A stretch of DNA of 64,000 bases, from the NCBI GenBank assembly GCA_030608005.1, contig JAUWIX010000002.1:817-64816 (forward strand). The letters are read 5' to 3'. Made by a program: the position numbers and the translations under genes. How positions within the stretch are numbered: position 1 is the first letter of the stretch; each line of letters opens with the position of its first letter. Shown piece by piece: positions 2,946 through 57,590 of this stretch. Origin of the DNA: Dehalococcoidia bacterium (lineage in GTDB: Bacteria; Chloroflexota; Dehalococcoidia; Dehalococcoidales; BS750m-G39). The notes below the pieces were generated by a model, which worked only from the letters and a program-made list of their open reading frames with translations, was not told the origin of the DNA and ran no database searches.

Positions 2946-3052
2946 TTTGATAACCCTTCTCCTTTCAAATTTATTATCATTTTGGGGCTTAACAGGCTTG
3001 GTGTATTATATCATTATTGTTGCCGGGTTAACAACGCCGCCAGCTTGTTCCT

Positions 3053-3318
3053 GAGCTAGTTCAGATAGATAGGTGACACAGATTATCATGTTTCGTTTCT
3101 CTATAGCGTTGACCCTATCCCCCTGACCCCCTTCCCCTGGAGGGGAAGGGGGAAGTTGTTTTAAGAGGGGGCTTTGCCCCCTCTTTTTTATTCCTCCCCC
3201 TCCCTTTGTAAGGGAGGGGGAGGAAGCGGGTTCCCAGGAAAATCGAAGATTTTTCTGGTGCTTAAAGGGGGTGGGTTGCTAAGTAAATGTCCAAGGGGGT
3301 GAGATTAATAAACAATCT
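3053..3318 (+). mobile_element. MITE-like mosaic hairpin element (largest copy), flanked by a 12-bp direct repeat
   Basis: The T1 terminus gagctagttcagatagataggtgacacagattatcatgtttcgtttctc is followed by three GC hairpin modules and the T3 end taataaacaatct. The sequence cagcttgttcct occurs at both 3041-3052 and 3319-3330. Confidence 0.7.
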
Positions 3319-3348
3319 CAGCTTGTTCCTTGACACGGCTGGGTCAGG

Positions 3349-8358: not shown

Positions 8359-8582
8359 TAAAATCTACCGGAACAGTAGGCTAAGGCTAGAGTAGGTTAC
8401 TATTCTGCATAGAAACTGCTTATCCAGGGAGACCTCTCAGGTGCATCCCCTTTAGTCGTGCACCAGGTGTATGCCGGGCATGTTATACGGAAAGCCCGCA
8501 CAAGAGGGCGAAGTGTTACACAGAGGCGTAGCTGGTGTGGAAAAGTTCTCTTTGGTGGGCAGCATGGAGTTCGGCGCTTTAT

Positions 8583-8792
8583 CTATTTCAGAACCACCCC
8601 CGTCCCGTAGGTTAGCACCTCAGCCGCATTCTGCATTATCATTGAGGTAGAAAACCTCATGCTGACCACAGCGTTAGCCCCTTTTTTCTCGGCATCCTCC
8701 GCCATCCTCTGGATGGCTTCTTCTCTAGCCTCAGCCATCATCTTGGTGTACTCGGTTATCTCACCACCAACTATACCTCGCAGTCCAGCCAT
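8583..8792 (-). CDS. YbjQ/UPF0145 family protein, apparently N-terminally truncated
   Basis: GRDIMAGLRGIVGGEITEYTKMMAEAREEA...GANAVV matches the YbjQ core. The frame is open only to 8855, has no canonical start upstream of 8792, and overlaps the 3' end of the neighbouring gene. Confidence 0.55.
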   Translation of the reverse strand: MAGLRGIVGGEITEYTKMMAEAREEAIQRMAEDAEKKGANAVVSMRFSTSMIMQNAAEVLTYGTGVVLK

Positions 8793-8821
8793 AATATCCC
8801 TGCCTACATACCCCTTCTGGC

Positions 8822-10807
8822 TTACTCGGTTTCTAGGGTGGCGAACCAGGCTAGGTCAGCGTTGTCGCCTGCCGTTGCCGAGGCTGTGGTGACATTACAG
8901 ATAACGGTGAAGTCGTTAGCTGTCACGCTCTTTATCCAAACAACATAGGCGATAGCACTGGGGTCATCGGGATTAGTTAGATTTGCTATTACCCTGGGCG
9001 TCTTCACGAACGGCACAGAGAATGTGACGGTGTGCTCCTTCAAGCCTGTGCTGTCGATAGGAACCAGGTTCTGGGCTAGACCGCTTTGTGAAATTTCAAG
9101 GATGGTGCCCGTTCCAGCATCCGCAATGCTCCCGGCCACGTTTCCGTAGCAGTAGTTTGCCGTTAATTTGTTAAGGTCGCAGTTGGCGGTGGCAATGTTT
9201 ATGCCATAGTTCTGCTTACCATCGGTGGCAAAGCAGTGATTGGAAGCGATGAGGTTAGAGTCACAATCATCATTTACACAAATGCCGTCATATGTGCCGA
9301 CTCCGGCTCCAGAGTTATTGAAGCAGGTGTTGCCACTGATGGTGTTGTTGTCGCAATCCTCAACTAAGTAGATGCCGTGCCAAGCATGCCCTCCAACGGT
9401 ATTGCTGCTGATGGTATTGTTATCGCACCGTTCATCCAGGTGAATGCCATTCCGACTACTGCCCAGACAGGTGTTGCTGTCAATGGTGTTGTTGCTGCTG
9501 CGATCCAAGAAGATAAGCTGGCAGGTGTTGCTATCAATGGTGTTCCCATTGCACGTGGCGAGCAAGTAGATACCCACAGAGGTGTTACCGCTGATGGTGT
9601 TGTTATCGGCACCGGACATTAGGTGGATGTGGCCGAGCTCGCCCTGAATGTTATTGCCGTTAATAGTATTGTAGTCAGAGTTACTGCCATGCAGGCATAT
9701 ACCACCGTTATAATTATCCTTGACGATGTTGCTAGTGATTGCGTTGTTGCTTCCTACCACATCGATGCCTTTGTCTCCGTTCATCCGACAGATGTTGCCA
9801 TTGACGGTGTTGTCATTGCTTGAGGACAAGTAGATGCCGTGAAAATCTTCGTTCTCCTGGCAGATGTTGCCGATGATAGAGTTGTTGTTTGAGGACCTCA
9901 CGTAGATGCCGGTGTAGTAATTCCTCTCACAGGTATTGCCTCTTATAGTATTGTGGCTAGAGGATTCCAACTGGATGCCGTAGAACCAGTCATTGTCCCG
10001 GCAGGTATTGTTGATGATAGCGTTATAATCGGAGGAGGAGAGGAGACAAATGCCGTTACTTTTTAGGTTCTCTACCTGGCAATTGACGATTTTGGAGTCT
10101 TCGACGCTGGTGAAGTAAATGCCATTCATGGTGACCCAAGACTGATTGGCTTTATTGCCGTCTATACAGAGGTCTCTTATCAATAGCTTGCTCTGGCCAG
10201 ATGCATAAATCATGTTGATGTTGACATTGTGGCTGTCCCTGATTTTGATTACCGTCGAAGCGCCAGCACCCACCAGGGCTACGTTCGACTTCGAGATGAT
10301 GATGTCGCCGGAAAGGACGTAGGTACCTTCCCTGAGGTAGATTGAGCCTCCAATGGATGGTAAGTCGTTTATCGCCGTATTGATCTCAACCTGGTCATCC
10401 GTTCCATCACAGACATAATCTGCATTCGTGTTGTCTATTGAATTGTATGCCGCCACGACGAAACTCGTAAACCCGTACCCGCGTGGTCCCTCTGGCCCTT
10501 GAGGCCCCTGTTCACCTTGAATTCCTTGTGGCCCCTCTGGTCCTTGAGGTCCCTGTGGCCCCCGAGCCCCTCGTGGCCCCCGCTCACCTTGTGGCCCCTC
10601 TGGCCCTGGTGGTCCTGGCTCGCCGGCTGGGCCCTGTGGACCCTGTGGCCCTGGTGGTCCTGGCTCGCCGGCTGGCCCTTGCAGTCCTTGTGCTCCCGGC
10701 GGTCCTTCTGGTGCCGGCGTTCCTTGTGGTCCAGCACAACTCACCGCTGGAACCAGAGCAAGAGCTACAAGTGCCAGGACGATGAAGACTCTACTTGGCG
10801 TTTTCAT
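8822..10807 (-). CDS. Secreted collagen-like (G-X-Y) repeat / right-handed parallel beta-helix / H-type-lectin-like protein
   Basis: It has a signal peptide ([26 protein letters not shown]) and about 28 G-X-Y triplets. About 15 PbH1-like repeats follow ([17 protein letters not shown]). The C-terminus [15 protein letters not shown]...[12 protein letters not shown]...AWFA resembles the H-type lectin fold. Confidence 0.8.
10601..10690. repeat. 45-bp tandem duplication inside the collagen-like region
   Basis: The sequence tggccctggtggtcctggctcgccggctgg occurs at 10601-10630 and again at 10646-10675. It encodes [15 protein letters not shown] twice. Confidence 0.85.
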
Positions 10808-10923
10808 AACTAAATCACCTCCTCTTTTTATTTGTGGTTATAGCACTTTGTATCAATATAGCGACATAAATTAAATTTAATTATTATCGCTTACGCTTCC
10901 ACACCGTCCCCTTGGGGGTATCC

Positions 10924-12414
10924 TCAAAGGGCTATGCCTAGCTCATCCATAAGACTGTTAAGAGATTCTTCAGATGGAACACTTTTATATGTGACGTCTG
11001 TTACTGTTTTGGTATCTTCCAGGGCGACCCCAAGCTCAGCCAGCTTACTTCGTATTTCATCAGCCCGTTGCCATTTCTCCTCTTCCCGGCATTTCACGCG
11101 CTCCTCAACAAGACGATGGACACGGGCACTGACCGCATCAGGTATTATTCGTCTTATGCCAAGCCTTCCTGAAATCTTGACTGCACCCCCTCCTACAGAG
11201 ACTGTTTGCACTGTTCGCGTTTCCGGAAGCTTTAGCCCCAGAACTTCCCGTGCCAGCGATATGAGAGTACTTTGAGCCTTGTCAATACTAACACCCGCAT
11301 CGCCAGCCTGATTTATAGCCCTAGCTAAATCAAATAGTACCGCCAGCGCTTGAGCGGTATTGAAATCATCATCCATCGCCTCGATAAACTGCTTACGGTA
11401 AGGCTCAGCATCAAGAGCTTTGCTCTTGCCACCAGTGGGGTCTTGTCTGGAAATCGCTTGTGTTAGTCTCTCCACCCCCCTCTCCGCTGCCTCCAGTCCC
11501 TCCTCAGAGTAGGTGAGCGGGCTGCGGTAGTGGGAGCTTAAGATGAAGATGCGCATGGCATCAGGGCTATACTTTTCCAGCGCCTGCTTGATGGTTATCA
11601 GGTTGCCCAGGGATTTGCTCATCTTGTCTTCACCGAGCTGCACCAGCCCATTATGCAGCCAGTATTTAACGAAGGGTTTAATGCCAGTGAAGCTCTCCGA
11701 CTGGGCAATCTCATTCTCATGGTGGGGGAAGATTAGGTCCTGCCCGCCACCGTGGATGTCAAGGGTATCACCCAGATATTTTAGGGACATGGCGCTGCAT
11801 TCAATATGCCAGCCCGGTCTGCCCCGACCCCAGGGGCTTTCCCAGGAAGGCTCGCCCGGCTTTGATGCCTTCCACAGGGCAAAATCTATCGGGTCTTCCT
11901 TCTCTTCGCTACCCACAGCACACTCACTAGGCATCATAGAATCCAGACTGCGGTGAGCCAGCTTGCCATAGTCAGCCACCTTCCTTACCCTGAAGTAAAC
12001 GCTACCCCCCGCTGGATAAGCATACCCCTTATCTATTAAGCCCTGGAGCACTTCAATGATTTTTGGTATCTCTTCGGTAGCCCTAGGGTAAATATCAGCC
12101 CGCTCGATATTCAGGGCATCCATATCCTCAAAGTAGCTATTGGTGTATTTCTCTGCCAGCTCGCGGGGTGGAATACCGAGCTGGTTGGCTCGGTCTATAA
12201 TCTTATCGTCAATATCAGTGATGTTCTGCACATACTTAACCTTATAGCCCCGAAACTGGAGATAGCGCCTGACGACATCAAAGACGATGTAGCTCATGCC
12301 ATGACCAATATGGCAATGGTCATAGGGGGTAACCCCACAGACATACATCTTAACCACATCGCTCTGTGGTGAGAATTCCTCCTTTTGTCCTGAGAGGGTG
12401 TTATATACTTTCAC
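10924..12414 (-). CDS. cysS: Cysteine--tRNA ligase
   Basis: It has the HIGH-type CHIGHGMSY motif, the KMSKS motif and WHIECSAM. Confidence 0.9.
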
Positions 12415-57325: not shown

Positions 57326-57590
57326 GTGGCACCTCAACTTTCTGCATCTCACCTCCTTCATTTACTTAGCAACCCTCCCCCTTTGTCCCCCTCCCTTAGG
57401 TAAAGGAGGGGGAATTAGTTGTGTAAGAGAGGCGAAGCCTCTCTTTGACTCTCTATTCTCTGTGGTGTTTAAGAGGGGCGCTAGCCCCTCTTAACAAAAT
57501 CTTCCCCCTTCCCCTCCAGGGGAAGGGGGTCAGGGGATGGGGTCAATGCCTGCAGAGAAACGAAACATAATAATCTGCGCCACTAATCTA
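57326..57590 (+). mobile_element. Degenerate MITE-like mosaic element (T2-like end, five hairpin modules, T1-like end)
   Basis: One end, gtggcacctcaactttctgcatctcacctcc, is T2-like. The hairpins include ccctcccttaggtaaaggaggg, aagagaggcgaagcctctctt, aagaggggcgctagcccctctt and ccttcccctccaggggaaggg. The other end, ggtcaatgcctgcagagaaacgaaacataataatctg, is T1-like in reverse complement. Confidence 0.7.

Follow-up and report, generated by a model that had tools for sequence, protein, structure and literature searches.

What does a gene whose product joins a collagen-like tract to a beta-helix and a lectin-like domain do in the chromosome of a member of the Dehalococcoidia, and how did it come to lie where it does? 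The gene occupies positions 8822..10807, on the minus strand, of a 64,000-nt stretch of contig JAUWIX010000002.1 (assembly GCA_030608005.1; the whole stretch is referred to below as the window), where a frame open over 1986 nt encodes a protein of 661 aa, here called the fibre protein. The original prediction, made from the DNA letters, described a secreted chimera of collagen triple helix, parallel beta-helix and H-type lectin, and offered as alternatives a surface fibre or adhesin and a domesticated tail fibre. The former is favoured here: the protein is probably a lipid-anchored homotrimeric fibre, ~35 nm long, which binds glycans and possibly also cleaves them, and adhesion or recognition is its most likely role. 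Profile searches support all three of the domain assignments, and the fibre belongs to a cross-domain family with the order membrane anchor, collagen, beta-helix.

A lipoprotein leader is defined by an n-region, an h-region and a lipobox of the pattern [LVI..][ASTVI][GAS]-C that ends the signal peptide. All of these are found in the fibre protein, the lipobox being AVSC, with its cysteine at residue 24 (LVPAVS-C24-AGPQG). The signal peptide originally described is thus present, but its type predicts a lipid-anchored and not a freely secreted product. When relatives were searched with the fibre protein no orthologue was found; dozens of short open reading frames (ORFs), many of them in tandem, matched residues 1 to ~110. 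These short collagen ORFs begin MKKxGKIIAFLIVIALIVVPL(A/T)AC, followed immediately by GPQGPxG, so that the lipobox of the homologous leaders is the canonical LAAC or LTAC. The lipobox pattern matches 18 of the 24 family collagen ORFs listed, together with the fibre protein and its 86% orthologue; the remaining 6 of 24 either lie antisense or have a start that is misplaced or truncated. Distant homologues with both collagen and beta-helix carry an uncleaved N-terminal transmembrane (TM) segment where the lipobox would be, and since a TM anchor replaces the lipobox directly before the collagen in these other members, membrane attachment is the constant feature. Both Lgt (PF01790, 181 bits, contig C34) and LspA (PF01252, 116 bits, contig C31) are encoded in the genome. 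The Dehalococcoidales host apparently lacks a cell wall: neither a penicillin-binding protein (PBP) transpeptidase nor FtsW/RodA was found in the 1.12-Mb, 87%-complete metagenome-assembled genome (MAG). A wall-less envelope is known for Dehalococcoides and fits the lack of PBP and FtsW hits here. The CysS of the host is 76-79% identical to that of relatives which NCBI assigns to Dehalococcoidales, Dehalococcoidia or Chloroflexota.

The short lipobox-collagen genes (~190-300 aa) form tandem arrays of 2-7 in same-family genomes, with seven genes at G006:C28:9034-13140 and further arrays at G012:C24 and C4; a further tandem pair lies on contig C4:21418-23102 (L002/L003) of the source genome itself. 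The C-terminal heads of these proteins vary widely, most of them belonging to no Pfam family, and the arrays look like an undescribed paralogous family of surface proteins.

The stalk that follows the anchor matches Pfam Collagen (PF01391) at 47.4 bits, against a cut-off of 27.2. Some 85 residues of uninterrupted G-X-Y had been reported; the parse gives 29 triplets, the third of which reads APE, a Gly-to-Ala interruption, leaving 26 unbroken, and Pro makes up 29% of the tract. The tandem duplication within it, also reported earlier, was recovered by Tandem Repeats Finder. The stalk is probably three-stranded, and its 87 residues at 0.286 nm per residue as triple helix give an estimated length of ~25 nm. 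NCBIfam models of the Scl, Lcl and BclA type score 51, 45 and 45 bits, in the G-X-Y tract only, where their cut-offs are 325, 500 and 400; because the scores are far under these cut-offs, the fibre is not a member of those equivalogs. Scanning the genome contigs with the full protein returned mainly collagen-only matches and no orthologues. As a general observation, collagen tracts draw spurious matches.

The beta-helix of the head is recognised by Pfam NosD (PF05048, 192 bits) and Beta_helix (PF13229, 99.7 bits) and by seven matches to NCBIfam TIGR03804 (para_beta_helix, 132.7 bits). A monomer model of residues 111-661, made with AlphaFold2 (AF2) from a 33-sequence alignment, has a predicted local distance difference test score (pLDDT) of 90.6, mostly above 90 in the beta-helix, and a predicted template modelling score (pTM) of 0.84. 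The model consists of a capped right-handed beta-helix of ~17 coils, somewhat more than the ~15 PbH1 turns counted at first, and then a six-strand sandwich. A Foldseek search of the head against the PDB placed the AlgE4 and AlgE6 epimerase modules at the top (best 2pyg), with the epimerase/lyase 8jaz; the depolymerising tailspikes Dettilon, phi297 gp61, Sf6, HK620, Pam1, AP22 gp54 and LKA1 gp49 came after them (among the entries matched were 4ru5, 7eea, 4y9v and 4ru4), along with K1 lyase and RbmB. Against BFVD, phage and giant-virus beta-helix proteins were matched. The sole PDB sequence match of the fibre protein is 7o0y (E 2.4e-7). NosD and AlgE4 proteins (PF05048, 7o0y, 2pyg) therefore provide the best Pfam family, sequence and fold matches; unlike them, the fibre lacks DPH and its gene, which has cysS, a ybjQ remnant and dnaN around it, lies outside any nos cluster of the kind that includes nosZ, nosF and nosY; the match is one of repeat-level similarity only. 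The protein contains 22 Cys, most of them repeated at the same position of successive coils (NTC, NIC), where they form a Cys ladder; it is an exported protein, and the host is presumed to be a strict anaerobe.

The C-terminal domain matches Pfam H_lectin (PF09458) at 27.9 bits (cut-off 24) over residues 592-657, which cover positions 2-67 of the 67 in the profile. Folded alone, the C-terminal 93 residues reach a pLDDT of 82, and a fold search with this knob matched every class of solved H-type lectin, discoidins I and II included, in agreement with the earlier description of the domain as H-type-lectin-like. The Helix pomatia agglutinin (HPA; 2ccv/2cgy/2ce6), coral SLL-2 (3wmp), the Helix aspersa agglutinin (HAA; 4q56) and discoidin II (2vm9) were returned at TMq values of 0.53-0.68, as well as 2w94, and the hit probabilities for H-type lectins were 0.5-1.0. 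The knob also matches the C-terminal knobs of phi297 gp61, LKA1 gp49, AP22 gp54 and Pam1 (4ru5, 4ru4, 4y9v, 7eea), the R-pyocin fibre feet 6cxb and 6cl5, and the AP22 gp53 fibre tip. The same four tailspikes thus match both the beta-helix and the knob, which bears out the resemblance of the head to a tail fibre. H-type lectins, tailspike knobs and fibre feet are treated as one trimeric lectin fold (PMC5701251; PMC6363177), in which sugars are bound by a network of distal loops (PMC6363177). The parts of the sandwich that vary most among the homologues are its beta3-beta4 and beta5-beta6 loops, and in the model these appear to correspond to the sugar-binding distal loops.

From these features we infer how the fibre would be lipidated, trimerised and exposed at the surface to meet a glycan ligand. 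After export by the Sec route, the lipobox would be processed by Lgt and LspA to leave diacylglyceryl-Cys24 as the mature N-terminus, held in the outer leaflet of the cytoplasmic membrane of a cell apparently without a peptidoglycan wall. The G-X-Y repeats begin 2 residues past this Cys, and three chains would wind into a collagen triple helix of the length estimated above, carrying at its top three parallel beta-helices (roughly 8 nm) and then a trimeric H-type-lectin knob, which would account for the total length of the rod. The head is laid out like tailspikes of the LKA1 gp49 / phi297 gp61 type. The likeliest ligand of the variable distal loops of the knob is a glycan, carried by another cell or by a polymer, and a face of the beta-helix may contribute binding or cleavage.

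The original prediction placed the gene among core genes, but it is not resident at this site: it is a 2.14-kb single-gene cargo cassette inserted at the 3' end of cysS. Three further metagenome contigs (L095, L113 and L114) carry intact orthologues, and blastn gives an unbroken 87-88% match to them over 8810-10949, with similarity ending at both sides. In all three the fibre gene lies between 66-nt imperfect direct repeats of the cysS 3' end, consisting of the real cysS end and an orphan copy (L095:177-242 / 2426-2491; L113:797-862 / 3046-3111). The cysS 3' end is an insertion hotspot, at 10884-11040 of the window in the source genome, where one extra T in the second copy of the cysS end puts the cysS stop codon within that copy. 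Such repeats resemble the tandem target-end repeats of integrative islands, for example the ssrA islands of Dehalococcoides; there is no integrase in the cassette. When GC and codon usage were compared with those of the neighbouring genes, as had been proposed, both were mildly atypical (G+C content at third codon positions, GC3, of 0.64, against 0.50-0.58). Upstream of the ATG just 1 of the 83 nt of the leader differs between the window, L095 and L113, whose coding sequences are ~87% identical. As for the AT-rich private promoter proposed earlier, the leader is AT-rich and near-invariant, with an extended -10-like element, TGCTATAAC, and a strong AGGAGG recognised by eye; a consensus scan of the AT-rich 116-nt leader found no sigma-70 promoter. 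The ratio dN/dS is 0.19-0.20 against two orthologues, and 0.10 within the lectin domain. The cassette is mobile yet maintained, given its mildly atypical GC3 and codons, its near-invariant leader and a dN/dS of ~0.2. The gene was not found after cysS in 13 same-family genomes. In these relatives cysS is followed by 0-3 small variable genes and then by a conserved block of radical SAM (rSAM), UbiA-like, secG and gatB genes, which in the source genome is on another contig.

All three domains occur together, among 5.8 billion clustered proteins, in only the fibre's own cluster, the 86% cluster and a 53% protein (P0004) whose neighbouring genes are just 52-56% identical to those of the source genome. 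By itself the lectin tip has just 16 matches among 1.84 billion cluster representatives, almost all of them C-terminal. The closest relatives of the head, at 52-55% identity, are proteins of 387-390 aa that begin exactly at the collagen end and have neither signal peptide nor collagen; because fibrillarin, Nop5 and PolB adjoin their genes, they are assigned to archaeal chromosomes. One relative of the TM-collagen-beta-helix type is also in an archaeal context. No head above 35% identity was found in 300 other genomes sampled from the same class, and within the family a partial head relative (55%) occurs only in G005. Beta-helix relatives on viral contigs (IMG/VR) reach 30-39% identity, and one of them joins collagen to beta-helix; none extends into the lectin domain. 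A quick maximum-likelihood tree unites all lectin-bearing proteins in one clade (SH-aLRT 96) and, within it, pairs the window group (100) with the archaeal group (100) as sisters, a topology compatible with transfer in either direction between archaea and bacteria. The archaeal beta-helix plus H-lectin genes L111:702-1871 and L112:5936-7108 have a conserved place beside fibrillarin/Nop5, with two small divergent genes upstream. The possibility that the collagen-less 387-aa proteins are virion proteins was considered and rejected in view of this archaeal housekeeping context.

Several points weigh against the reading of the protein as a lipid-anchored, glycan-binding fibre. Position -3 of the lipobox is Ala where Leu is usual, so signal peptidase I may cleave instead, and the absence of wall genes is provisional because the MAG is incomplete. 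The H_lectin score lies just ~4 bits over its threshold, a narrow margin, and direct and profile sequence searches of the knob against the PDB found no solved lectin, the likeness to solved structures having been recovered by fold search only. Enzymes, moreover, share the beta-helix fold, which does not tell an adhesin from a depolymerase. There is a minor but appreciable chance that the protein is instead a surface-tethered polysaccharide depolymerase (lyase, hydrolase or epimerase), with a catalytic beta-helix and the knob as a carbohydrate-binding module, used on extracellular polysaccharide or that of foreign cell surfaces for feeding, matrix remodelling or partner access. The ranking of the fold matches, with AlgE4, AlgE6 and 8jaz ahead of the depolymerising tailspikes, K1 lyase and RbmB, would suit such an enzyme, as would the Pfam pectate-lyase/RHGA cap (PF12708) carried by homologues and the precedent of LKA1 gp49, a proven O-antigen lyase that joins beta-helix and discoidin-like knob alike (PMC5701251). 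The matches to enzymes nevertheless have TM-scores of 0.2-0.5 and identities of 10-17%; no DPH occurs anywhere in the protein, so the DPH(D/E) motif of the AlgE/AlgG type is absent, and NCBIfam AlgG, whose cut-off is 700 bits, reaches 11. What is near-invariant across the 33-sequence alignment is of structural kind (Gly, Asn, Ile and Leu residues, and the N-terminal cap), with no conserved acidic or basic cluster on the central coils, and the gene is not linked to any for uptake or catabolism. Since the DPH motif and a conserved catalytic cluster are both lacking, binding appears better supported than catalysis for the head.

A purely structural part, as a strut or spacer that joins an S-layer or sheath to the membrane and has no specific ligand outside the cell, is improbable. 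It would suit a genome in which PBP and FtsW were not found, and the tandem lipobox-collagen arrays of the relatives could be envelope building blocks, but the fibre gene was found at the locus in none of the 13 same-family genomes and the head, above 35% identity, in 0 of the 300 class genomes; the cassette is mobile; and the tip is a lectin fold with variable loops. Because fibre and head were not found in relatives, an essential envelope role is excluded. Descent as the tail fibre of a prophage or tailocin that has otherwise decayed is very improbable, in spite of the tailspike-like layout of the head, the match of PHROG tail-fibre families to the collagen tract, the IMG/VR beta-helix relatives (one with collagen) and an integration-type hotspot with direct repeats. 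In place of a virion-attachment domain the protein begins with a lipoprotein leader, and the cassette is a single gene that keeps its own conserved leader and is under purifying selection. The statement that the window offers no phage context is correct, and in L113 too there are no phage genes save a recombinase fragment. Viral relatives do not exceed 39% identity and are without the lectin domain, while the closest relatives are archaeal chromosomal genes. The PHROG tail-fibre names were rejected as evidence of phage origin, their match being confined to the low-complexity collagen tract, and domestication of a tail fibre is thus not specifically supported. Least credible of all is a non-functional passenger, or an artefact of assembly or prediction from low-complexity repeats. 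Scars do lie nearby (a truncated ybjQ and a truncated 71-aa gene) and collagen tracts attract spurious matches, but the frame is open over its full 1986 nt, orthologues are intact on three independent metagenome contigs, dN/dS is ~0.2, and the fold is predicted with high confidence.

The lipid-anchored fibre favoured here has counterparts in several known systems, and differs from known collagen adhesins and from MAT fibres in its anchor and its set of domains. In BclA of the Bacillus exosporium, Scl1/Scl2 of Streptococcus and Lcl of Legionella, attachment is through a C-terminal LPXTG or to a basal layer, and the heads have C1q/TNF-like, V-domain or C-type-lectin-like folds. Like them, the fibre would use a collagen stalk to present a globular head at a cell or spore surface; unlike them, it is predicted to be anchored by an N-terminal lipobox and its head is a beta-helix with an H-lectin. 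H-type lectins (the Helix pomatia and Helix aspersa agglutinins, SLL-2, discoidin I/II) share with the knob the PF09458 match and the six-strand sandwich, and are trimers, which fits the collagen stoichiometry of the fibre; identity is 15-20%, and the lectin domain here is the tip of a far larger fibre. In the tailspikes LKA1 gp49 and phi297 gp61 (PDB 4ru4, 4ru5) a right-handed beta-helix is likewise followed by a C-terminal discoidin/HPA-like sandwich; they are trimers, and the presumed roles of the knob are carbohydrate binding and stabilisation of the trimer (PMC5701251). The fibre has a lipoprotein leader and collagen stalk in place of their virion-binding N-domain, has no insertion domain, is 10-20% identical to them and is encoded by a cellular chromosomal gene. 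MAT fibres of Bdellovibrio bacteriovorus are chromosomal and trimeric, with phage-like parts and exchangeable glycan-binding lectin-type tips (PMC10769870), and the Dehalococcoidales family is similar in that it retains leader and stalk and swaps heads. The MAT stalk, however, is an intertwined beta-prism in proteins of ~1000 aa that often carry an S74 chaperone, with collagen and lipobox unmentioned (PMC10769870). The likeness is drawn from design.

Dehalococcoidia are abundant in anoxic sediments and aquifers, with tiny genomes and no cell wall. To our knowledge, little is known of how they contact their surroundings or partners, and among the papers searched none names collagen-like proteins together with Dehalococcoid*. 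The predicted lipid-anchored stalk, with its tailspike-like lectin head, is a concrete candidate for contact with cell glycans, and the family-wide succession of lipobox and collagen below heads of varied kind points to an entire class of fibres like it. The head family is common to archaeal and bacterial chromosomes, and cysS is a second gene-end insertion hotspot in the lineage. A collagen stalk and a lectin head with phage-like tip are already known from other bacteria, so the design itself is of limited surprise. More speculatively, and with considerable doubt, wall-less Dehalococcoidales might run a modular system of surface recognition, in which heads on a constant leader-and-collagen mount are swapped by recombination in or beside the G-X-Y repeats, single-gene cassettes insert site-specifically at the cysS 3' end and leave tandem cysS-end repeats, heads are exchanged between bacteria and archaea, and the fibre recognises the glycans of partner cells, archaeal or bacterial, in anoxic sediments.

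Table 1. Features of the fibre gene and its surroundings, in window coordinates.
Feature	Residues	Position	Strand	Evidence
Predicted lipoprotein signal peptide	1-24	10736..10807	-	Lipobox pattern and homology to ...VPLAAC-GPQG leaders
Collagen-like tract, 29 G-X-Y triplets	26-112	10472..10732	-	Pfam Collagen and triplet parse
45-bp tandem duplication in collagen tract		10590..10679	-	Tandem Repeats Finder, 2.0 copies, 93% matches
N-terminal cap and right-handed parallel beta-helix, ~17 coils	113-568	9104..10471	-	Pfam, NCBIfam, AF2, Foldseek
C-terminal H-type-lectin-like six-strand beta-sandwich	569-661	8825..9103	-	Pfam, AF2, Foldseek
AT-rich leader with extended -10-like TGCTATAAC and AGGAGG ribosome-binding site		10808..10890	-	Conservation
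Second cysS 3'-end copy (ELGIAL)		10884..10944	-	Alignment with both L095 cysS-end copies
Whole cargo cassette (cysS-3'-end copy, leader, gene, 12 nt past stop)		8810..10949	-	blastn
5'-truncated ybjQ-like remnant, ORF of 69/104 codons from internal Met		8585..8790	-	Comparison with full-length copies

The surroundings of the cassette can be read by comparison with L113, a close relative in which the 5' part of cysS is 84% and ybjQ 94% identical to the window. The order there is cysS, fibre gene, orphan repeat, hairpin element, small TM gene and full ybjQ. L113:2955-3719 has no counterpart in the window, where a 765-nt deletion has cost ybjQ its first 28 codons and has also removed the orphan repeat, hairpin and TM gene. 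Full-length ybjQ is present at L113:3635-3949 and also in L114, L101 and L103, and an intact paralogue, 50% identical, is on contig C29 of the source genome. Of a 71-aa gene, intact at L114:2815-3030, the window retains only the initial 14 codons, at ~8500-8560. A 158-aa serine-recombinase-like ORF (MKAAIYCRVSTEDQ…) at L113:3879-4355 (-) overlaps the 3' end of ybjQ and is missing at the equivalent place in L114 and in the window. A group of genes near 43-45 kb that had the look of a surface-protein operon is unrelated to the fibre, having no collagen and no beta-helix similarity.

In the window and in a subclade of relatives CysS has a C-terminal extension of ~30 residues, which is itself a second copy of the cysS end, old and frameshifted. 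An origin of this extension as a by-product of the cassette was ruled out, since it is conserved in the subclade that is without the cassette and is therefore the older of the two. In ~10 same-family MAGs (G003, G004, G007, G015, G017, G018, G022, G041, G042, G045) a contig ends inside cysS, and several same-family cysS frames are 533-628 aa long, against 496, which suggests strain heterogeneity or repeats at the locus. In L095 (2690-2785) and L113 (3292-3391) the hairpin repeat element is sited a little downstream from the orphan cysS repeat, and further copies occur elsewhere in the window, at 3195-3287 (within 3041-3330) and at 57377-57429.

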